Positions 6,522 to 59,723 of a stretch of DNA of 64,000 bases are shown piece by piece (the first letter of the stretch is position 1; each line of letters starts with the position of its first letter). A program made the translations under genes and the position numbers. The stretch is from the NCBI GenBank assembly GCA_964016885.1, contig OZ024758.1, positions 7,812,001 to 7,876,000 of the forward strand, written 5' to 3'. This DNA is from Eledone cirrhosa. Lineage: Eukaryota. The notes under the pieces were generated by a model. The model had not been told where the DNA came from, searched no databases, and saw only the letters and a list, made by a program, of their open reading frames with translations.

Positions 6522-7047
6522 TTAACCCTTCAGCATTTATTGTATTTCCTGGCACCGGAGACGCTTCGTCCTCGAGGACGCACCTTAATTTTGGCAGCCA
6601 AAAATTTTTTTAAAAAAATAATAAACAACCTTCAGCCTCCAGGGCTCATGGTAGATTTTTGAGACTTATTTTAGGAAAAAAGTAGCGTCTTCGACACTGG
6701 GAAATGCGGTACATTACTCTAGATTTACTATTGTATTTTCATGGTAAACACTTTATCACACATAATATCAAAGCTATCAGATTTTGATATTATTTATTTT
6801 GAGAACAATACCTTAACATCAGTATGAGCGGCCGGTTACAGCCAGTTCTTCATCATCATCTTCATCACCGGCTATATTTGGCCAGAATTCTCTCGCCTCA
6901 TCCTGTTCAAACTGGCTGTAACCGGCCGCTCATACTGATGTTAAGGTATTGTTCTCAAAATAAATAATATCAAAATCTCATAGCTTGAACAGAAAGAGGA
7001 GAGAGAATTCTGGCCAAATATGGCCGGTTTAAATGATAAAAGGTTAA
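6522..7047. mobile_element. piggyBac-like MITE with nested pogo-like insertion and internal inverted duplication
   Basis: TTAA-CCCTTCAGCATT ... ATGATAAAAGG-TTAA; about 6780-6846 is inverted at about 6913-6978. Confidence 0.75.
6540..6709. mobile_element. pogo/Tc2-like non-autonomous DNA transposon
   Basis: TA duplication inside the MITE; homologous to 43496-43663. Confidence 0.75.
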
Positions 7048-13188: not shown

Positions 13189-13483
13189 TCATTAAAAGGT
13201 TTCAAGTTACGGCAGTAATTTAGAATTTGTGGAATAAATATCAAAAGTAATTGTGTGTATGTAAGTATAAATATATATATAAACCAGCCAGAAACTCCCC
13301 TATATGAGCAAGACATGGTCACCCGACCCAACTTACCTCTAATTGGAGCAAACCCATCTAACCCATGCTAGTGTGGAAGATAAACGTTAATCGACGATTA
13401 TGATGATATCTATGTATACATATAAATATATATATGTGTATATTATTGTCATTTAACATCTGTTTTCTTTGGTAGCAAGTATA

Positions 13484-13846
13484 TCATCATCATCGTTTAA
13501 CGTCCATCTTCCACGCTAGCATGGGTTGGACGGGTTTATCCCACTTGTGGCAAGATTGGTCGGGTGACCGTGTCTCGTTCGTATAGAACTGTTATATAGG
13601 TGTCACGACAAAAAAAAACACAGTCCACGCTGTAATGTGGCCGTGTAGGTAACACGGTAAAAAGCTCCCAGTCCACACTGTAAACATGGTTGGTGTTAGG
13701 AAGGGCATCCAGCCATAGAGAACCTGCCAGACAGTCCTATACCAGCGAGACATGGTCATCCGACCATTCTTGCTTCAAGTAGGACAACTCCCATCTAAAC
13801 CCATGCTAGCGTGGAAGATAGATGTTAAACGATGGTGATGATGATG
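13484..13846. mobile_element. Two RTE-tailed SINE-like fragments head-to-head (13484-13590 minus, 13598-13846 plus)
   Basis: Both carry the cccatgctagcgtggaagat..acgttaaacgatgatg tail, in opposite orientation. Confidence 0.7.
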
Positions 13847-15954: not shown

Positions 15955-16150
15955 TTTCGTTTCTGAATTTGTTTAGCAAGATTCTCTATCTGAAAACGTG
16001 TGTTAAAACCGATATTGTTATACTTTGGGAGGGTCATATTGCCAATAAGAAACACACGCACCATTTTTTAATTTATAATAAATTGGAGTGAAAGCAACTG
16101 GTGCATGTGTTTCTTATTGGCAACATGACCCTCCCAAAGTATAACAATAT
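15955..16150 (-). mobile_element. (TA)n-embedded fold-back element P3, putative Penelope-like terminus
   Basis: 52-bp inverted arms 16012-16063 / 16099-16150 (50/52 match), unique tail on one side, (TA)n on both flanks. Confidence 0.55.
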
Positions 16151-17828
16151 ATATATATATATAACAGTGTGTTCTGGTTTGCTTGAAGCATTGTTGAATA
16201 GGAAACACAAATCTAAATAATTTTGAAAACCATACAATGCACTAGAAAATTAAAATTGCCAAGATAACAATAGAATCTTACCTTAGCAAATTTAATAATC
16301 CCAAATATTTTCGGGTTTAAAAACCCATTATCAACGGAGTATCCCTATGAGAGACTTAAGGGATTGATTGGAGATGACTTGTTTGTAAAGCAGATTTAAG
16401 TTAAATGTAATGAAAAGATGTTAAAATTTCAAGCATGCACGTTATGAAATTCTGGGGAAAAGTGTGTGATATATGCATCAATGTAAGTGTGCTTAGTGGG
16501 ATGTATGTATGTGTGTGTGTGAATGTAAATGTTTAGTGGGATGTATGTGTGTGTGTGTCTGGATGTAAGTGTTTAGTGGGATGTATGTGTATGCATTTAT
16601 GTAGTGAAAGGCGTGATGCTAACACTCAGATGTTCTTGGTCTTCTGTTACATGTCTACCTTAGATTTTGTGATGCTAACACTCAGCAGACTTTTAAATTC
16701 TAATACTTTCTAACTGAATTTGTTTTTTCTTTCGATTTTCCAATAGATTTTGTAATTGGAACTTGGTTGTTAGTATACATAAATTCAATAAGCATCTGGT
16801 CTTCTCAAAAAGTAAAAGGAAAAGAAAGGAACTGAAGATAAAGATTTAATGAAATTTTTACTTTAAATTTTTTTCCTTAGTTCGTTGCTGATCTTGGCTC
16901 TGCTTTTAACATCTTTTTATATGTTCTGAACATTCACCAACTATTTCTACCTCCCAAAGTCAACAAATTGATTTGAAATTGTTTGTCTTTTAATATTTTT
17001 TTCTGATTTTTATTTATCTATTTTATTATCAGAAATATATGATCTGCGAGTTTATATCATTGTTTAAATTTAAATTGTAGTTCTATGATCACCCCCCCCC
17101 CCCCTACAAAGTGTATTTAAATATATATATTTAGATCATCATCATTTAACAACTTTCTCCTCCTGCTAGTAAGCGATAGACAGGTCTTCATAGACCAAGC
17201 CAATACTCATGTGAGGCTACTGACTTCTCAGATGGGCTGGGAGGCCACATCTTGCATCCATGGCATCTCATGCTTTACTTAGTTTCTTTTATCATAACAC
17301 CAGCACAGGGGAGGGTTGTCATGTCTTTGACACAACTCAAGGGTCCTCCTAACCCTTTCTTTGATAAGCTTTCTTCAGCTGAATGCCCTTCCCATCACAA
17401 ACCACTTTACAGCATGTACAGGGTGTGTTTACAATGTAAATCACCAACACTAGGGAGGTTATCTCACTGTTGACACAACTGAAGGGTCCTCTCAACCCTT
17501 TCTAGCATGGTATCTACAGTGGGGAGCCCTTCTTGTCACCAACCACCTTACAGGCTGTACTAGGCGCTTGTTCATAACACCAACACTACAGTAGGTTGTT
17601 CTGTTATTATCCCAACTGATGAGCCCTCTTTGCTCTGCAGGTGGAAGAGGGAGGAGGAAGATAAGCAATATGTTATGACAGTATGACAAGCGTGGTGGGA
17701 TTTGTTTGGGTGATGAATCGGGTGGTGAGGGTTGACCTTCGATGGCATAGGAGGGGTGGATAGAGGGGGAGATGTAGTGATGGTAAGGTATTAATTTAAA
17801 TTCATTATTGGTTAGAAAGTAGTTAGAA

Positions 17829-18015
17829 GGGCGGTGGATTGGCAGTATCGGTAGAGGGTCGGATGTCATGCTTTGACGCATAGAGTTACGGCCCTTGCCA
17901 TTCTGAGTTCAAATCTCGCCGAGGTTAACTTTGCCTTTCATCCTTACGGGATCGATAAAATAAAGTACCGGTAATGTACTGGGTAATTGTTGGCCTTGTG
18001 CCAATAGTAGAAACA
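17829..18015 (+). mobile_element. tRNA-derived SINE, family A
   Basis: Full-length match to 3851-4037; duplicated flank ttattggttagaaagtag. Confidence 0.85.
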
Positions 18016-18099
18016 ATTATTGGTTAGAAAGTAGAAACAATTATTGGTTAAACAAAGTGAAATGTTTGGATATCAAAAAATCTATATATTAATGATATA

Positions 18100-18557
18100 T
18101 TTCTACTATAGGAACAAGGCCAGCAATTTTGGGGGAGGTGAAAATCGCTTAAATCGACCCCAGTGCATTACTGGTGCTTTATTTTATTGAGCCCATAAGG
18201 ATGAAAGGCAAAGTTAAACTCAGCCGGATTTGAGCTCAGAATGTAAAAGGAAGAAACTATATGCCATGAAGCTTGTTGTCTGACACTCTACCGATTCTGT
18301 CAATCCATCGCCCTGATATATCATAATATAATAAAGGGTGGTTTTTCTGTTAGTATGAGTAGCATTAATATATACTTGAATTGAAAGTATCGATAGAGGC
18401 TCGGACATGCTTTCTAGCATAGTTACGTCCCTTTATGATCTGAGTTCAAATCCCGCCGAGGTTAACTTTGCCTTTCATCCATACGGGGGTCGATAAAATA
18501 AAGTACCAGTAATGTACTGGGTAATTGCTGGCCTTGTGCCAAAAGTAGAAACAATTA
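18100..18557. mobile_element. Two family A SINE copies (18100-18314 minus, 18385-18557 plus)
   Basis: Homology to the family A core. Confidence 0.75.
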
Positions 18558-19373: not shown

Positions 19374-19500
19374 ACGTTATTCCGGGTTGAATCGGAGGTA
19401 ACTACAGTAAGTAAGGTACTCAATACATTGCAGAGTATAAAAGTTTTAATATAGATGAGATTCTACAGGACTAGAACTGTTTCATTCTTTAGAAATCATC

Positions 19501-19501
<1 letters not shown>
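19374..19501 (-). mobile_element. P2 family copy with 5'-truncated hammerhead motif
   Basis: Minus strand reads (a)TGATGA-t-ttct-aa-agaa-t-GAAA-cag-ttctagtc-ctg-TA-gaat; flanked by (TA)n. Confidence 0.65.
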
Positions 19502-27288: not shown

Positions 27289-27413
27289 ATATATATGTAT
27301 GTATATATATATATATATATGTACACAAACATATATGTAACGTTCAAAGAGATAGAAGGCTAAAATGGACTGTAAGAAGAGGTAACGAAAAGTAAAAGTT
27401 ACCTGGTAATCTT

Positions 27414-28394
27414 TGGGCGTTTTTTTGTCGTGACACCTACATGACTACTTTACAGTGTGGACTGGGCACTTTTTGTCGTGACACCTACACGACTACTTTA
27501 CAGTGTGGACTGGGCGCTTTTTGTCGTGACACCTACACGACTACTTTACAGTGTGGACTGGGCGCTTTTTGTCGTGACACCTACACGACTACTTTACAGT
27601 GTGGACTGGGCGTTTTTTGTCGTGACACCTACACGACTACTTTACAGTGTGGACTGGGCGCTTTTTGTCGTGACACCTACATGACTACTTTACAGTGTGG
27701 ACTGGGCGCTTTTTGTCGTGACACCTACACGACTACTTTACAGTGTGGACTGGGCGTTTTTTGTCGTGACACCTACACGACTACTTTACAGTGTGGACTG
27801 GGCGCTTTTTGTCGTGACACCTACACGACTACTTTACAGTGTGGACTGGGCGCTTTTTGTCGTGACACCTACATGACTACTTTACAGTGTGGACTGGGCG
27901 CTTTTTGTCGTGACACCTACATGACTACTTTACAGTGTGGACTGGGCGCTTTTTGTCGTGACACCTACATGACTACTTTACAGTGTGGACTGGGCAGTTT
28001 TTGTCGTGACACCTACACGACTACTTTACAGTGTGGACTGGGTGCTTTTTGTCATGACACCTACATGACCACATGGCCACTTTACAGTGTGGACTGGGTG
28101 CTTTTTGTTGTGACACTTACATGACCACTTTATAGTGTGGACTGAGCGCTTTTTGTCATGACACCTACATGACCACTTTACAGAGTAGACTGGGTGCTTT
28201 TTGTCATGACACCTACATGACCACATGGCCACTTTACAGTGTGGACTGGGTGCTTTTTGTTGTGACACTTACATGACCACTTTATAGTGTGGACTGAGCG
28301 CTTTTTGTCATGACACCTACATGACCACTTTACAGAGTAGACTGGGCGGTTTTTGTTGTGACACCTACCTGACCACTTTACAGTGTGGACTGGG
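27414..28394. repeat. 48-bp minisatellite, about 20 units, derived from a SINE internal segment
   Basis: Unit ctttacagtgtggactgggcgctttttgtcgtgacacctacacgacta; gives the 16-aa periodic ORF 27441-28124. Confidence 0.95.
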
Positions 28395-29949
28395 GGAACT
28401 GTGAAGAGATTGAGGTGGTACTACAGTACTAAACACATTATAGAACTTTCTGTTATGATATTGAACATTGCAGAAATATTTGCTGACTACATCTCTTTTA
28501 AAGAATTATATTTACTTTGACTTCTAACAATTGGTTCATATAGCCTGCTGTGATTTAATGTTTCTAATTCTTAGACTTAGATGCTTGTTACCAAACTGCT
28601 TCTCTCTATCACCTCTATTAGATTACTACTGCTCTTTTATTGATGTAATAGCCTTATTTCACAATTTCACTGAAGGTATTGAGGACACAATGTTGCTCTT
28701 TTTCTCATAACTGGTGTTATATTAAATTATATTGGCTTGCATAAACATTCGGTTAAAATTTTCTTATCTAAAATTGCTTGTAGGAAACAATCTGTAATAT
28801 AAATCATTTCTTAGAGCAAGTTATATGATAGATGGAAAGCTCATTGCAATATAATTGGTATTCAGTTCTGTTTGTAACAAAGTTATCATACTTCTGTCTT
28901 GTCATTTTTTTTTTTTAAACAGTAAATTTGTGCTACAATATATTGTTCTTCGTGATACAGCTGGTTTTGATTTGGTGTGACTTTGAGAAAGCAGAATGTT
29001 CATAGTAGCTTTTGTCATTTCTTTTATCTCTTAGGCATTCAACAAAACAGTTTTATTTGATTCCACGAATCCCATCAGTGAATATTCTTTAAAATAAACA
29101 ACATTGTGTTTTAACTTATCTCTTCTTGATAAAACAACAACAACATCAATAACAACAAAACTAGTTATTCTGTTGGTAACATAAATATTTTTATATTGGA
29201 TTTGTTATCTAAATGAAGTGGAATTATTATTTTTGTGAAAAGCTGGAATGCAACTTACAACTTGAAAATATTCCCTATATGTTCAAAGAAAATCTCCCAG
29301 GCTTCTAATTAAGTTGATTATTTGTGTTTATCCAACCAGTGTATTTTTCTCTTGAAAACATTAATAATAATTCTAATGAGGAAGTTAACAACAATAACAG
29401 CACAACACTCATTTTGTTTTGCTCATTCTTCTAGTTATTTCAATGAGAATGATATATGAATGACTTTGATATCTTGCTTTTCACTCTGCCAAATTAATTG
29501 TTTCTTATTGATTATATTTGCAGTGATGCTTGTTATTCAGAATATAGCCATATCTGTTTGGATTCCATCTATATAATTACATTTCAATAGTTATTTATGC
29601 ATGATTTTAACAAAATTTTGACAGGAATGGATACTAATTTTATTTTCTATTATAGAATGCTCTTATAGAAATTCTGTGCTGGTAACTTTGATCAAAATAG
29701 TCTAGAAAACTAAAGCGAATTTGCTTACTCTTCTATGACTGACTGTTCCTTGAGTGAGCTTAAAAGGTTTTTGTCAGCAAATACAGTTAGTTCTGTTGTT
29801 AATGAAACTCTGAAACAATATTTTAGATTTCTAGGAAACTGAATGTAGGAAAATTGTTAGTGGCTTTTATTAATATTGTAAGTAAAGTTTGGCTGAGATA
29901 ATATATAAATTAAGGTGGACTAAATTTCCATTATAATTAATTCTGTAAT

Positions 29950-30182
29950 AAAGTTCGTTATCGAAGGAAAGACAGCCACCAAGAGCCTTGATTCTTTTTG
30001 GTTGGAAGAAGAGAGAAAGTTATCGTTACAAATTCTTCAGGCATTCCTGATGATTTCATATGAATGAAACAGTTCTAGTCCTGTAGGAGTTGTTTCTATA
30101 TATAATAATGATGCCTATACTCTACCAACATATTGAGTCCTGTTTTTAACTGTGGTTACTCCCCAACACCACTTGGAAACCT
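29950..30182 (+). mobile_element. P2 family copy (putative Penelope-like terminal repeat)
   Basis: Homologous to the copies at 19374, 31341 and 33144; contains a hammerhead core; ends at a TA run. The 5' boundary is uncertain. Confidence 0.6.
30043..30089 (+). ncRNA. Putative type I hammerhead ribozyme (P2 family)
   Basis: attc-CTGATGA(30047-53)-t-ttca-ta-tgaa-t-GAAA(30066-69)-cag-ttctagtc-ctg-TA|ggag. Stem III acag/ctgt, GUA triplet, predicted cut after 30085. Short stem I and an atypical U-U pair at the base of stem II. Confidence 0.6.
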
Positions 30183-30457
30183 ATATATATAAGCTGAAGC
30201 ATATAGGCAATATGCCCCCATCCCCTCCCACTGCAAAGTGGTCGTAGAGGTGTCATGACAAAAAAGCACCCAGACCACACTGTAAATGAGGTTGGTGTTA
30301 GGAAGTGCATCCAGCTGTAGAAATCAAGCCAAAATCAGTTCCCGTATGAGCAAGACAAGGTCAGCTGACCTAACATTGCCCACAACAGGACAACCCGTCT
30401 AACCCATGCTGGCGTGGAAGAATCAACATAAAACGGTGATGATGATGATGATATATT

Positions 30458-30488
<31 letters not shown>

Positions 30489-30559
30489 CAAAATTAGTTT
30501 ATAACAGAAGCACTCTACAGAATTCTTCTGGAGTATAATATCAAAAGTATTAATAAATG

Positions 30560-30751
30560 GAAACTATCTTTATAAAATCATATTTATTTTATTATATATA
30601 TTTCAAGGGTACCAATTCAAACAGAACTTAAAACGATAAGTTCTTGTTTTGGATATGACACTATCTGTAAAACAACTTTTATATTTTATCTGATGAGAGC
30701 GTAGTAGACAAACGAACTGGACAGATCGGTGACCACCAGGCATATGTGCAT

Positions 30752-30755
<4 letters not shown>
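30560..30755 (-). mobile_element. P5 sister copy with a micro-inverted hammerhead 5' half
   Basis: Minus strand GAAA-tatata-TA-ataaaata (30604-30585); plus strand tattttat-CTGATGA-gagcgta (30682-30703); 54-bp match to 31021-31074. Confidence 0.65.
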
Positions 30756-30782
<27 letters not shown>

Positions 30783-31020
30783 AAATGGGGAGAAGAATAC
30801 TGCAGGTTGCACATGGATAACATGTTATAAAATGAGTCCCTCATCAGTGATTTGCCAACGATCATAGATATTTCATTGCATTAAAAATCATATACCTCAC
30901 GTTGGTGCAATAATAACTAAATTAAGTTATTAGGACAATTAAAACGCGTAAAGCGAGTGAGACAAGTAAACAACAAAGAGGAAAGCTAACCGTAGATAGG
31001 AAGGGCACAAGCTACATATA

Positions 31021-31220
31021 TATAATGCACATATGCCTGGTGGTCACCGATCTGTCCAGTTTGTTTGTCTACTAGCATATCAGGAAAAAAAATTATAGAT
31101 TTTCTATATATTTTGTCTGAGGAGGACATGTTTTGCTTTATGTTAAACATAAAACTTTACATCTTTGAAATATATATAATAAAATAAATAGAGATTATAT
31201 AAAGTATATATCTTTTGTTA
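31021..31220 (+). mobile_element. P5 family copy (putative Penelope-like terminal repeat)
   Basis: Homologous to 46225-46500 and 50495-50760; starts in a TA run. Confidence 0.65.
31109..31186 (+). ncRNA. Putative type I hammerhead ribozyme (P5 family)
   Basis: tattttgt-CTGAGGA(31117-23)-ggacatgt..tttatgtt-a-aacataaa..acatcttt-GAAA(31167-70)-tatata-TA|ataaaata. 8-bp stem I, long stem II, palindromic minimal stem III, predicted cut after 31178. Confidence 0.7.
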
Positions 31221-31340
31221 TTACTATTATTATTATATATATATATATATGCTGGCCTTGTGCCAATAGTAGAAACAATTATTATATATATATATATATA
31301 TATGTACACACACACACATATACATACATATATATATATA

Positions 31341-31490
31341 TTACAAGACTAGAACTGTTTCATTTAGTTCTGCTCCTGTAGAAGTCATTTCTATATATAA
31401 TAAAGATGCCTATACTCTACCGATGTATTGAGTACCTTTTGTTAACAGTGGTTACTCACTCCCCTGACATGACTCGGGTATCTGCATATT
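31341..31490 (+). mobile_element. P2 family copy with short inverted 5' arm
   Basis: tacaagactagaactgtttca is the reverse complement of the GAAA/stem III region, joined to the sense 3' part; lies in (TA)n. Confidence 0.6.
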
Positions 31491-31664
31491 ATATATGTAT
31501 ACATATTCTGAAATAATTGTTTCTTCTTTAGGCACAAGGCCAGCAATTTGAAAGGGGTGGGCTGATTAAATCAACTCCAGTACATTACTGGTACTTTATT
31601 TTATCGACCTCCGTAAGGATGAAAGGTAAAATTAACCTTCGTGGGATTGTTGACGGCATCTTTT

Positions 31665-32913: not shown

Positions 32914-33129
32914 ATAGGAACAAGTAAGACCCCGATGGCTGAGCTCAAGCCGTTTCGACGGCTAATTCTGTCAGAATTCGACGGCTAAGTCTATCAGAAT
33001 TAGCCGTCGAAACGGCTTGAGCTCAGCCGTCGGGGTCTTATTTGTTCCTATTACCCACTCTACTACCCTAAGTATTGAGTACTTTGGTGCGTTATGGTCC
33101 ACCTGGTTCCTTACCACATTTCCTTCGTT
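32914..33129 (+). mobile_element. P1 fold-back element with hammerhead 3' half
   Basis: Inverted repeat 32914-33051; GAAA(33009-12)-cggct-tgagctc-agccg-TC-ggggtc; unique tail; (TA)n flanks. Confidence 0.7.
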
Positions 33130-33143
33130 ATATATGTATATAA

Positions 33144-33295
33144 GACTAGAACTGTTTCATTTATATGAAACAGTTCTAGTCCTGTAGAAGTCATTTCTAC
33201 ATATAATATAGATGTCTATACTCTACCAATGTATTGAGTACATATTTTAACTGTGGTGACCCTCTCCCCTGACATAACTCGGGTATCTACATATT
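33144..33295 (+). mobile_element. P2 fold-back copy
   Basis: 17-bp perfect arms 33144-33160 / 33165-33181 around ttat, immediately 5' of GAAA; (TA)n flanks. Confidence 0.7.
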
Positions 33296-34037
33296 ATATA
33301 TGTACCTACATATTATTATATCCCAAAAGGACCCAATGATCAATATAAAGCCACGTTTGAGATATCTACCTTAGCTTTAGACTTAACATGCCTATTGTTT
33401 ATACAACTTATACAATTCCTATTAATAGGGGATTACATAGAAACAAAGAGCATAGGATAAACTTTAACATTATGCATAATTTTTACACATATTGCTTGAG
33501 ATTTTCTTTTAAAATTGTTGAAACAAATAAAACTATAAAACCTGTATCAGTTTGTGGACAAGTTAATAGTTATCTAAACATCGTTTATCATAGTTTTATT
33601 TAATAACTTTGTTAATTTATGTTCTAAACACCAGATTAATAATGAGAAAATTATTTATATTATTAAATTCCTCTCATTTCCTGAATATATTCCAAATGAT
33701 ATGAAAACTATAAACTGTGTTAGAAATATAGGAACGGAAGTGTTGCTATTTGTAACCTTTCCAAGCAATGTGCTTCTCATACTTACAAATTAAACTTCAA
33801 AATAATCTCAAACTATAGCAATATCTGTTCCAACACATTTTTCAGATAAAAAAATCTTGCAAAACAAATATAAAAACAAAATATAAAATCTCTTATTTTT
33901 GTCATTTGGAAACAAAACAGTCATTGCAATTGTGACGTTGAGGGCAACTTTGTTATAAAACTTTACTTAGGGAAAATTTGAAAATATTCCTTAAATATTT
34001 GTTAATTAATGAAACTATATGGTTTTATAGAATAACA

Positions 34038-36910: not shown

Positions 36911-37107
36911 TACATGTTCGTTGTACTGGAACTGTGATCTCTCAATTTGGAGAAGCAGTGACTCTCTGTTCACTGAGCTACACACACTATCGAGTAATGT
37001 TACTCCAAAGAAGGAAATCCCCGCTTCAGCTGATTGTATTTATGATCGTATTGTTTTGCTCATTACCCAAGATTCATGACAATAGGTAAATGTTAGCACT
37101 TTACCTA

Positions 37108-37350
37108 TTGACGTGACACCAACACCATCATTTTACAGTGTGGGCTGGGCTCTTTTTGTTGTGACACAAACACAATCATTTTACAGTGTGGGCTGGGCTC
37201 TTTTTGTTGTGACACAAACACAATCATTTTACAGTGTGGGCTGGGCTCTTTTTGTTGTGACACAAACACAATCATTTTACAGTGTGGGCTGGGCTCTTTT
37301 TGTTGTGACACCAATACAATCATTTAACAGTGTGGACTGGGTGCCTTTTG
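37108..37350. repeat. 48-bp minisatellite, about 5 units
   Basis: Unit ttttacagtgtgggctgggctctttttgttgtgacacaaacacaatca, a variant of the 27414 unit. Confidence 0.9.
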
Positions 37351-37734: not shown

Positions 37735-38369
37735 CATGGGTTCCCAGTCTTTTATGAGTCATCGTACACTTTCACATGGAAAAGATTTCCACCACCCGCC
37801 TGTATACTAAATATTCAAAAGTATACCAAAAATGTTTGGTAAAAGTTTCTTACTGATTTCTTATTACCATTATTACCATTTAGCCTCCTGTTTTTTTTTT
37901 GTTTTTTTGGGGGGGGTGGGGTTATATATATATATATATATGAAAGTGGCAGAAAGAATGTTAGCGCAACTAATTAGAGAAAGGGTCAAATTAGATGAGA
38001 TGCAGTTTGGTTTTGTGCCTAGGAAAAGTACAACAGATGCCCTCTTCTCAGTGAGACAACTACAAGAGAGGTTCTTAGAGAAGAATAAGCCACTATACTT
38101 AGCTTTGGATGACCTAGAGAAGGCCTTTTATAGGGTACCCCGCAGGGAAAAGCGGATGTAAAATGATGATGATATATATATATATAAACCAATTCTTTAC
38201 ATATCACCTTTGAATATGTTTTTCGGGTAGCATATGTTGAAACAACTTTTGAATACTCAAATCCTATATCATCCACTAAAGTTTCCAATCGCTTACCATT
38301 TTCTTTTCAGTTGCTCAACAGTTAAAATCACTCACCAGTGGGCAATATCGCCCAGGTTGGGAATCTCTG
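37735..38369. mobile_element. hAT (Charlie-like) MITE with nested RTE fragment
   Basis: Degenerate TIRs catgggttccca / tgggaatctctg; candidate 8-bp TSD gtgtagtc / gtgtagag. Confidence 0.5.
37940..38172 (+). pseudogene. RTE LINE reverse-transcriptase fragment fused to the LINE 3' tail
   Basis: MKVAERML...DEMQFGFVPRKSTTDALFSVRQLQE...LYLALDDLEKAFYRVPR (RT motifs QxGF, STxDA, DLEKAF), then gcagggaaaagcggatgtaaa(atg)n. Confidence 0.9.
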
Positions 38370-46224: not shown

Positions 46225-46500
46225 AATAATTTATGAAACATTTAAACCAACTGTAATGTGTCCCTGTCCCCCCCCCAATTACGTAACACCCTTACGTTCT
46301 GAGGTTTTTCTAGTCATATGCCTGGTGGTCATCGATCTGTCCAGTTCGGTTGTCTACCAACATATGAAAAAATTATACATTTTCTATATATTTTGTCTGA
46401 GGAGAACATATTTTGCTTGATGTTTTACATAAAACTTTGCATCTTTGAAATATATATAATAAAATAAATAGAGATGATATAAAATGTATATCTTTTGTTT
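46225..46500 (+). mobile_element. P5 family copy
   Basis: Homologous to 31021-31220 and 50495-50760. Confidence 0.65.
46389..46466 (+). ncRNA. Putative type I hammerhead ribozyme (P5 family)
   Basis: tattttgt-CTGAGGA(46397-403)-weakened long stem II-GAAA(46447-50)-tatata-TA|ataaaata. Confidence 0.6.
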
Positions 46501-46670
46501 ATTACTAATATTATTATCTCTCCCCCTCCGAGGTTAACTTTGCCTTTCATCCTTACGGGGTCGATAAAATGAAGTACCAGTAATGTACTGGGTAATTGCT
46601 GGCCTTGTGCCTAAAGTAGAAACAATTATTATCTCTCCCCCTCTCTCTCTCTCTCTATATATATATATAT

Positions 46671-46883
46671 TATAATTGAATATAAAAGAAAAACGAACAC
46701 AGACATATACATATATGTGTTCAAATCGTAAGGGACCAGATAATTTGAACACATATATATATATGTCTGTGTTTGTTTTTCTTTTATATTCAATTATACT
46801 ATACGGCTCGGAAATATCTCTTTCTTAGAGCTATTTTGTTGTAAGAGACTATTTTGAGTTCCTAACTCAATATATACCTTTGA
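46671..46883 (+). mobile_element. (TA)n-embedded fold-back element P4
   Basis: 56-bp arms 46671-46726 / 46743-46798 (54/56 match), 16-nt spacer, unique tail, TA flanks. Confidence 0.55.
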
Positions 46884-46894
46884 TATATATATAT

Positions 46895-47094
46895 ATAGGA
46901 ACGAGTAGGACCCCGACGGCTGAGCTCAAGCCGTTTCGACGGCTAATTCTGGACTGAGTCCAGAATTAGCCGTCGAAACGGCTTGAGCTCAACCGTCGGG
47001 GTCCTACTCGTTCCTATTACCCACTCTACTACTACTAGTATTGAGTACTTTGGTGCATTATGGTCCACCTGATTCCTTACCACATTTCTTCCGT

Positions 47095-47095
<1 letters not shown>
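46895..47095 (+). mobile_element. P1 fold-back element with hammerhead 3' half
   Basis: 61-bp arms around the single base 46956 (60/61 match); GAAA at 46975-78; (TA)n flanks. Confidence 0.75.
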
Positions 47096-47130
<35 letters not shown>

Positions 47131-50165: not shown

Positions 50166-50358
50166 ATAGGAACAAGTATGACCCCGACGGCAGAGCTCAA
50201 GCCGTTTCGGCGGCTATTTCTGGACTGAAATAGCCGTCGAAACGGCTTGAGCTCTGCCGTCGGGGTCATACTTGTTCCTATTACCCACTCTACTACACTA
50301 AGTATTGAGTACTTTGGTGCGTTATGGTCCATCTGGTTCCTTACCACAATTCCTTTGT
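50166..50358 (+). mobile_element. P1 fold-back element with hammerhead 3' half
   Basis: 55-bp arms 50166-50220 / 50227-50281 (54/55 match), loop tggact; GAAA at 50239-42; (TA)n flanks. Confidence 0.75.
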
Positions 50359-50494
50359 TATATATATATATATTTATATATAATAATAATAGTTTTTACT
50401 TTTATCACAAGGCCAGCAATTACCCAGTGCATTACTGGTACTTTATTTTATCGACCCCGTAAGGATGAAAGGCAAAATGATAATAATAGTAATA

Positions 50495-50760
50495 AACGAA
50501 AAATATATACTTTATATCATCTATATTTATTTTATATATATTTCGAAGATGTAAAGTTTTATGTATAACATAAAGCAAGACATGTCCTCTTCAGACAAAA
50601 TACATACGAGATGTATAATTTTTTCATGATATGCTAGTAGACAAACGAACTGGACAGATGGGTGACCACCAAGCATATGACTAGAAAAAACTCAACACAT
50701 AGAGAGTTACATGACTAGGAGAAAACATTACAGTTGGTTTAAACGTTTCATCAATTATTT
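50495..50760 (-). mobile_element. P5 family copy with hammerhead core (stem III shortened)
   Basis: Minus strand tattttgt-CTGAAGA-ggacatgt...acatcttc-GAAA-tatat-ataaaata (50602-50528). Confidence 0.65.
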
Positions 50761-57855: not shown

Positions 57856-58072
57856 TTAACCCTTTAGCATTTAAACCAGCCATATTCGGCCAGAATTCTC
57901 TCACCTCTTTCTGTTCAAACCGGCTGTAACTGGCTTTTCATATTGATGATGAGGTAATGTTCTCAAAATAAATAATATTAAAATTTCATAGATTCGATAT
58001 TATGTGAGGTAAAGCCTTTTCAGGTGAAAACATAATAGTAAATACAGCATAATGTAAGTGCTAAAGGGTTAA
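57856..58072. mobile_element. piggyBac-like MITE
   Basis: TTAA-CCCTTTAGCA ... TGCTAAAGGG-TTAA; another copy at 58268-58480 in opposite orientation. Confidence 0.85.
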
Positions 58073-59723
58073 AATAGCTTATAAAATAGAGTGAAGACCG
58101 TTAAAAGAGAGAAAAAGGGGGTTACATTGGCTGTAATGTTGTCATGTCCTCATCAAGACTAAAGAGTTTTCTCTATTCTATGTTGTCTCCATTCATCATC
58201 AACCACTTTAGAGAGTGTACTCAGTTCATTTTATGGTGACACCAACTCTACAGAGGTTGTCAAGTCCTTAACCCTTTACCATTTACATTACTCCATATTT
58301 ACTATTATATTTTCATGGTAAAGGCTTTACCTCACATAATTATCTCACATAATATCAAATCTATGAGATTTTGATGTTATTTATTTTGACAACAATACCT
58401 CAACATCAGTATGAGTGGCTAGTTACAGCTGGTTTGAACGGAAAGAGGTGAGAGATTTCTGGCCGGTTTAAATGCTAAAGAAAAGCCAAAGGGTCTCTTT
58501 GTCAACCATCTTACAGAGGATATTAAGTGCATTACATCCATTAATATGTAACCATATAACCAATGCATACTTCAACTCATTACTAACATATTGTACAAAT
58601 GTGTAACCAACATTGATTCTCATTTTCCTTTTTAAATGAGAATTTATAAATTTGTGAGCATGTTAAGACAAAAACCCTGAATTCGAATTGGTGCTTTGAT
58701 TCTACAGTCTGTGAATTTACAGTTGTAAGAATGTCAGATAGAATGTTTTGTTGTATTCATTTTGGCTCTCTGCTCACTGAGTTCAGGTCAACTTTGCCTT
58801 CTATCTATTTAAGGTCAATAAAAAAAAGTAACACTCTTGTACTGGGGTCAACTCTTCCTTTATATCTCTTTCTCACTTCCGCTCTCTCTCTCTCTATCCT
58901 TCTCTGGAAAAAATCTGCACCTGGAGAGGAGATAGGCTCCTCCAGAAATTGCCCTAGAAATGCTGTATGTCAATACAGTGCTTTTATGACTCCTTCAGGA
59001 GTTATGAGACTATAGATGCATGCTTTTATTCTCAGAAGTATTTTAATTTAAACGGTTTCAATTCAAAGTAATCATTAATTTTGCACTACTTCAGATTGTA
59101 TATTATAATTGGTACATAATGATAAATCTCAGCTCTATCCCTTAATTATCTTATATTTAATTAAGTTTGATAAGCTACTGGGTTTTCTACTCTACCGTAG
59201 CCCTTAGACCCAACTAACTGAAAATTAGGCACCACTGTTGAGTGATTCATATATGCCTTATCTTGCCTAAACAAGCTAAAAATAAACAAAACTACACACA
59301 TGGTGAAATTAATATAATTAGATAATTTCTATAGTAATTACTTCTGGTTACTCTTCAGTGATTATCAGTAAAGGCTGCCTGACTGATTGGCATAAAGATG
59401 TGCTATTACCTCTCTCTACATTTTGTACTGCTACTATAGTAGCTTCTGGTCCTTAGATTTAGCTAATCTTATGCTTCTTCCAATCAATCCCCCTGACTCA
59501 CTCACCTCTTTTCCTCTTCTCTCATTATTCATATTATGTCTAATTACTGCCCTCACCATCATGCCAGTTTTCCTACGCAGAACCCTCTAGACATGCCTCT
59601 CCTCCCATGTTTTTCACTGCAGCCATCAACAGCCAACTGTTCAAGAGGAATGTGTCAATCATCATTCAAATCTTGAGAAGCCTACGAAGGTTATGGATTC
59701 AGCCTCTTCCCCCAGACTAGACT

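Follow-up and report, generated by a model that had tools for sequence, protein, structure and literature searches.

The window analysed here, a stretch of 64,000 nucleotides from Eledone cirrhosa (assembly GCA_964016885.1, contig OZ024758.1, positions 7,812,001 to 7,876,000), has a G+C content of 33.9 % and is dense in microsatellites and short interspersed repeats. It contains four copies of a repeat family termed P2 (copies A–D; Table 1), all of which are monomers, single rather than tandem, and a blastn search with each copy against the window returned no fifth copy at E < 0.001, matches to TA repeats aside. In copy A the repeat starts at about 30040–30044, and the intact core described in the initial annotation (CTGATGA, GAAA and GTA) is present. 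Copies B and C each consist of an inverted arm followed by a direct arm. Copy D belongs to a more distant P2 subfamily and has no inverted arm; it had correctly been described as truncated within CUGAUGA, as its 5′ truncation lies at the C of this motif, against a TA/CA microsatellite, such that the copy starts at TGATGA and is without the first C and stem I only. Copy B itself sits in the TA-rich 3′ end of an upstream copy of another family, P1 (32914..33135), which is found at two further places in the window.

Table 1. Coordinates of the P2 and P1 copies and of their parts within the window
Feature	Position	Strand	Description
Copy A	30040–30190	+	Complete type I hammerhead-like motif, decayed stem I, common tail after
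CTGATGA of copy A	30047–30053		
Stem II region of copy A	30054–30065		
GAAA of copy A	30066–30069		
Helix III of copy A	30069–30084		
GTA of copy A	30083–30085		
Copy B	33139–33300		Inverted arm (–) plus direct arm (+)
Inverted arm of copy B	33139..33170	–	32 nt; reverse complement of A 30054–30085
Perfect palindrome of copy B	33144..33181		17-bp arms, loop TTAT at 33161–33164; 38 bases in all
Junction overlap of copy B	33165..33170		ATGAAA, 6 nt, common to inverted and direct arms
Direct arm of copy B	33165..33300	+	GAAA 33167–33170, helix III, GTA 33184–33186, stem I 3′ arm, tail
Copy C	31342–31505		Inverted arm 31342..31365 (–) plus direct arm 31366..31505 (+)
Copy D	19374..19501	–	More distant P2 subfamily; no inverted arm
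P1 copy	32914 to about 33135–33142	+	Directly upstream of copy B
Further P1 copy	46895–47118		
Further P1 copy	50166–50382		

The hammerhead-like core of P2

In copy A the CUGANGA and GAAA core elements occur in order and are followed by an NUH triplet after helix III, this being the only one of nine CTGATGA..GAAA matches with a helix III after it. Helix III (ACAG/CTGT) has 4 bp and is closed in copies A, B and D by an 8-nt loop holding CTAG, and stem II of A and D begins with a U-U followed by 3–4 bp, with no G10.1-C11.1 closing pair. Stem I is decayed to 3 bp in A; the consensus of two of the public runs described below, read by eye, is suggestive of 6-bp versions in other subfamilies (AGATTC/GAATCT in a tandem unit of run X5 and GGCTTT/GAAGCC in X4). 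The tandem unit in question is 78 nt long, has a joint backed by 90 reads with 16 starts, and contains a complete hammerhead with a perfect 6-bp stem I. The predicted minimum-energy fold of copy A differs from the active ribozyme fold, and no Rfam hammerhead was present among the 124 matches in the window (E ≤ 1) or the four at 29990–30140 (E ≤ 10); microRNA matches from the same database, all below gathering scores, were dismissed as microsatellite artefacts. A motif scan of viral contigs gave 0 matches, and the single match in metagenome contigs (L001) had no CUGAUGA upstream and was taken as unrelated. Judged by its sequence, P2 is likely a family of type I hammerheads, with copy A a decayed member of it.

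When P2 is set beside known systems, its predicted ribozyme resembles the type I hammerheads of Penelope pLTRs and metazoan non-LTR retrozymes in layout, conserved core, palindromic bases of loop 3 and variable stem II, as does the repeat in its very high copy number and in being mostly dispersed as single copies, with some tandems (PMC4209133, PMC7229834, bioRxiv 10.64898/2026.07.22.740005). Unlike them, it has a longer helix III (4 bp, 8-nt loop), lacks the G10.1-C11.1 pair and is monomeric in the window. A U-U at the base of stem II is also found in the axolotl HHR_Amex2 (PMC7229834). Additionally, in the 78-nt unit of X5, which aligns on 30043–30086, the start of the spacer resembles the sequence downstream of copy D, and its end is a T-run plus CAG, like a 3′ splice site.

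The head-to-head junction in copy B

The perfect palindrome reported in the initial annotation was confirmed, with its 17-bp arms and TTAT loop, and the full inverted arm was found to extend to 32 nt. The DNA of 33139–33186 has a predicted fold of −17.2 kcal/mol (z −10.45), and non-simple arms of at least 17 with a loop of at most 40 occur at five centres in the real window and in none of 100 third-order Markov simulations of it, which rules out a chance palindrome. Read along the top strand, copy B presents the reverse complement of A first and turns to sense at ATGAAA. The inverted arm covers the hammerhead from just behind CUGAUGA up to and including the cleavage triplet and differs from the reverse complement of A at three of 32 positions (26/27 by blastn), and the tail of the direct arm is ∼110 nt long with TA-rich sequence at its end. 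At the palindrome (33144–33181), an inverted insertion of a very abundant, hammerhead-bearing repeat has its head-to-head junction.

The source of the overlap in A is TTTCAT (30054–30059) together with ATGAAA (30064–30069), which form the only short-loop perfect inverted match of at least 6 nt amongst the 15 matches of at least 5 nt in 30040–30190, as well as the centroid hairpin in the fold prediction for the minus strand of copy A. In this hairpin (30054–30069) the 5′ arm of stem II pairs with the core GAAA, in a register offset from that of stem II in the ribozyme itself. As such, the junction does lie on the self-complementary stem II region to which it had been assigned, but near stem II and with a different pairing.

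The loop of the palindrome bears on how the junction arose. TTAT is one base off the inverted loop, TCAT, the sense loop in A being ATGA, and over 48 nt of copy B an inverted-loop model leaves three mismatches vs five for a sense-loop model, a test that assumes that stem II of B's parent equals that of A. The inverted loop would therefore favour attachment of a further minus-strand copy at the left flank, with moderate support only, because the margin is two bases and 30058–30061 is the most variable part of the family. This weakens the stem II fold-back proposed in the initial annotation. In a fold-back of this kind, which is also the self-priming reading of Arkhipova (2013), the single cDNA, or else an antisense RNA or the end of a broken DNA, would stop after stem II, snap back on TTTCAT/ATGAAA, copy about 20–30 nt and be end-joined to the left flank. 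The minus strand of copy A forms exactly the hairpin needed, Penelope junction palindromes have been interpreted as self-priming (PMC3846280), and the arm length falls within the about 5–34 bp of templated fold-back inversions at yeast breaks, which also resemble P2 in their use of microhomology (PMC11724301). Nevertheless, we consider fold-back of the main strand unlikely, as it predicts a sense top-strand loop and leaves unexplained the fixed end of three P1 inverted arms, 21 nt past the triplet; the yeast inversions, which are a product of host repair, likewise predict a sense loop and no fixed arm ends (PMC11724301).

Copies B and C share more than their architecture. Aligned over 134 bases, their direct arms are identical at 119, against 76–83 % identity in the remaining five pairs of P2 copies, and their inverted arms have the same left end and two common changes relative to A (at 30062 and 30081). 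At position 30081 both direct arms retain the base of A, and the same arm site has a T in both inverted arms and a C in both direct arms; by a rough estimate, two arms would acquire an identical change at one of 15 sites with a chance of 2–4 %. Furthermore, the junction of copy C equals that of copy B minus 9 nt at the hairpin tip, and an irregular TA-rich 3′ end is common to both. Given the 9-nt difference and the two common arm-specific changes, the simplest reading of the sequences is that B and C are probably one event, later copied, although an RNA carrying two unlike ribozymes is a possible source. A plain segmental duplication with long flanks was rejected, similarity ending at the TA-rich ends. 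P2 therefore gives one inversion and no replicate set: the count of three in four P2 copies broken within the core stands, but not as three independent events, B and C being sister copies.

A quite improbable alternative is that B and C arose as separate inversions, both from a master RNA with two slightly different ribozymes, the second cDNA being primed each time at the cleaved GUA 3′ end, with cleavage active. Both inverted arms do begin at the complement of GUA (for copy C the initial annotation had recognized this start, at tac, although it lies at 31342 rather than 31341), type I ribozymes of such kind are thought to act as tandem dimers (PMC4209133), and a 78-nt tandem exists in X5. Conversely, a 9-nt deletion suffices to turn B into C, the irregular TA-rich 3′ end is common to both, and the 123 nt of A that follow stem II contain 18 TA sites, of which the TA of GUA is one and may just match the TA target. 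P1 arms, moreover, end elsewhere than at the triplet, and for the anole element insertion in vitro did not require cleavage, RNA reads with an end at the cleavage site being absent as well (PMC11167929). The arm end at GUA is a single observation, and with 18 such TA sites and P1 arms ending 21 nt past the triplet, priming at the cleavage site is not established.

The three P1 copies carry the 3′ half of a hammerhead, consisting of GAAAC, a helix III with a palindromic loop, and GUC. In all three, the inverted arm stops within TA repeats at 21 nt beyond the triplet, and the junction loops differ; either arm can extend further 5′, as read by eye. Within a copy the two arms differ at two, one and one of 50 positions, vs three to six between copies, which makes P1 better evidence than P2 for arms made at each insertion. 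P2 had been put forward as the best internal control for P1; with one event only, it is a weak one. In the P1 copy at 32914 a 9-bp stem II in sense orientation is seemingly retained. Downstream of their ribozymes, P1 and P2 have a short motif in common, ctctac...gtattgagtac (33058–33090 and 33230–33242), which hints at related families or a shared protein-binding site.

Public sequencing runs aligned on copy A

Four of seven public runs were aligned on 29700–30215 of the window at 80 % likeness. X1 and X2 come from one sample, X4 from another organism, and X5 consists of reduced-representation reads. Matching records numbered 6,774 in X1 (contigs), 6,217 in X2, 5,047 in X4 and 5,408 in X5, and the P2 core is very abundant in runs of two species; the summed depth of X1 (about 1.3 million vs 16.6) was not used as a copy number. 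Up to about 30030 the depth was evenly low, whereas across 30042–30095 it was very high, with single-copy depth upstream of about 30040 in X1 and X2. From the step near 30040 it follows that A begins at stem I and is not full-length, and we therefore discarded copy A as the intact parent that it had been taken for.

Of the loose ends in the runs, 24 of 590 were listed. Among these, the 5′ ends of X1 were at 30040 (92 contigs), 30042 (128), 30043 (95) and 30044 (260). Those listed for X2 fell at the same four places, and those for X4 at 30040, 30044 and 30047; none of the ends listed for X1, X2 or X4 lay in stem II. For X5 the listed ends were at 30043 (1,010 reads), 30044 (407), 30048 (335) and 30062 (478). 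The X5 ends at 30048 come after TA repeats, as in copy D, and at 30062 the sequence shows an inverted core that a short spacer separates from a direct core in decay; with this decayed core upstream, the junction really lies near 30046–30048. Across the ends listed, the best-supported 5′ ends were thus at 30040–30047, before the core rather than in stem II, and copies that keep the core look commonest in the runs, contrary to the three broken copies of four in the window.

Of the 25 joints, 15 were listed, and 11 of these link opposite strands. Amongst those listed, one end of the opposite-strand joint was at 30062–30063 in 7 of 8 contigs in X1, 7 of 10 in X2 and 10 of 12 in X4, as well as in 215 of 265 reads in X5, and in the other six opposite-strand joints the second end was at 30050 or at 30085–30105. 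A B-type joint was absent from the 15 of 25 listed. Some of the joints at 30062–30063 are probably alignment clipping at the variable loop. As such, inversion joints cluster at stem II in a manner that is suggestive, by an assay biased to that place. The initial annotation had looked to a genome-wide histogram of 5′ truncation and inversion points for a peak at stem II or the cleavage site; as approximated from the four runs on copy A, inversion joints do peak at 30062–30063, yet the best-supported 5′ ends lie at 30040–30047 and B and C are probably one event. The outcome is no clean pass, in that junctions upstream of 30040 are invisible on the copy A reference, alignments clip at the variable loop (30058–30061), and palindromes break short-read contigs.

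Relation to Penelope-like elements and origin of the insertion

Head-to-head inverted architecture is already known, and P2 adds a family to it. In the rotifer Adineta vaga, the Penelope elements Pen2, Pen2a and Pen3a have head-to-head inverted pLTRs, with a 15-bp junction overlap in Pen2a, and the pLTR 5′ end bears palindromes of 18 and 38 bp, which were explained in 2013 by self-priming on an antisense template (PMC3846280). P2 is like these rotifer pLTRs in that an inverted 5′-truncated copy abuts a direct copy with a junction overlap, and in its junction palindromes, one-end tail and AT-rich or TA targets; it is unlike them in having no coding region, an arm of 24–32 nt and a tail of about 110 nt vs 30–40 nt, and in the accessible text the rotifer palindromes are not related to hammerhead stems, antisense self-priming being proposed instead (PMC3846280). 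More generally, an inverted 5′-truncated copy, an optional tail and TA targeting are traits of Penelope-like elements (PMC8557442), and copies B and C and the three P1 copies have the inverted 5′-truncated copy beside a direct one, the tail at one end and the TA-repeat target. Minimal hammerheads occur in pLTRs, with opposite-strand pairs 100–700 bp apart (PMC4209133), and animal retrozymes are described as derived from pLTRs (bioRxiv 10.64898/2026.07.22.740005). Three P1/P2 motifs were absent from the readable supplement of PMC8557442.

No Pfam match to a Penelope reverse transcriptase or GIY-YIG domain was found in 68 reading frames of at least 52 aa in 17–36 kb (68 of the 250 window candidates were scanned, plus 37811–38158), and six-frame translation gave no long frame in 28401–30200. 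As no Penelope coding sequence was found near the copies, the repeat can be said only to behave like a Penelope terminal repeat, with putative membership by analogy. It is likely a high-copy, non-coding repeat, either a Penelope-type terminal repeat or a retrozyme, moved in trans.

In LINE-1 twin priming, two target-primed cDNAs are joined by microhomology to give a 5′ inversion. The inverted and direct parts of such LINE-1 copies are mostly adjacent, whereas those of P2 overlap and so give a palindrome. Judged by title and start of abstract, none of the papers found on Penelope, twin priming and inversion applies twin priming to Penelope. A tie between inversion junctions and hammerhead stems was likewise not found in the literature searched, which included few subscription papers.

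The reading that we prefer, and on which we are about evenly divided between acceptance and doubt, is that the head-to-head junction was formed via two cDNAs pairing through TTTCAT/ATGAAA. An element-encoded enzyme acting in trans would cut a TA repeat and prime cDNA from both sides, one cDNA starting at the 3′ end of the element and another at the GUA triplet or next to it. The latter cDNA would run through stem II, and its 3′ end, ATGAAA, would pair with the TTTCAT of the former, either at once or following a short snap-back on itself, whereupon repair would fix the paired structure. B and C would both derive from a single event of this kind, with a loss of 9 nt from the hairpin tip in C. 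Since two minus strands can pair only at self-complementary sequence, which in so short a repeat means the ribozyme, the ribozyme would be passive, simply providing the nearest sequence of this kind. The anatomy, the 6-nt overlap, the TA-rich flanks and the abundance of the core in runs of two species are observed, and the joining of two cDNAs is inferred. In its favour are the turn of copy B to sense at ATGAAA, the fewer mismatches of the inverted loop, the unique short-loop match of TTTCAT and ATGAAA in A, the P1 arms that are closer within a copy than between copies, the action of the anole protein on both target strands, the traits described for Penelope-like elements and, amongst the opposite-strand joints listed, the frequent end at 30062–30063. 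Against it stand the two-base margin of the loop test at a highly variable site, the negative Pfam and Rfam results, the absence of a B-type joint from the 15 of 25 listed, the probable clipping behind some joints at 30062–30063, and the T/C difference between inverted and direct arms of B and C, which is not expected from a single template and would call for inheritance or for an RNA whose two ribozyme copies differ.

A later template switch at the DNA level, in which an inverted 32-nt piece replaced the 5′ ribozyme of an intact inserted copy with no role for retrotransposition, would formally give the same product. It has short matches at both switch points (TA and ATGAAA) in its favour, and P2 supplies just one independent event in the window. 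Nevertheless, three P1 copies have the same architecture, their arms ending at a fixed site within TA repeats, and joints between opposite strands are seen repeatedly in runs of two species; we regard a DNA-level switch as quite improbable.

P2 bears on two questions, the attachment of the Penelope 5′ end and the role of the hammerhead (PMC8557442, PMC11167929). The function of Penelope hammerheads has been called unclear (PMC8557442), and in vitro a Penelope-like protein from an anole both cuts and extends the two strands of its target, with two internal start sites (PMC11167929). We think it quite improbable that Penelope hammerheads are active in insertion, with the GUA-cleaved 3′ end priming the second cDNA and the stems pairing the two cDNAs and attaching the 5′ end; if they were, the long-known junction palindromes of Penelope would preserve a fossil imprint of the ribozyme stems and of in vivo cleavage. 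In a genome with thousands of short copies, loop orientation separates fold-back from two-primer joining, and the end position of the inverted arm separates passive from active ribozymes. The P2 finding, as one event, settles neither matter, and with one event and biased read evidence a stem-guided join is a modest, though reasonable and testable, lead.

Several other repeats were noted in the window. At 46666–46803 there is a TA-flanked hairpin whose centre lies immediately 5′ of a GAAC; a TA-rich helix and GTC come after this GAAC, and the hairpin may represent a third family, one in which the core is non-canonical. Another repeat, of 230 nt, forms an inverted pair (30534–30763 and 31013–31237) with TA runs at the inner ends; it is also found at 46315–46517 and 50477–50679, and has a CTGATGA at about 30690 without a matching GAAA. 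Local inverted duplications of other short repeats lie at 6771–6986, 13300–13586, 16012–16150, 17828–18314 and 57862–58480, and no hammerhead half was seen at the four of these centres inspected. A reverse transcriptase fragment at 37811–38158 (Pfam RVT_1, E 2.8e-05, below the curated cut-off) is probably a decayed LINE piece. Finally, a 48-nt tandem array with a core 97–98 % identical occupies 27400–28400 (also 2328–2715 and 37100–37350), and single units related to it are dispersed across the window.
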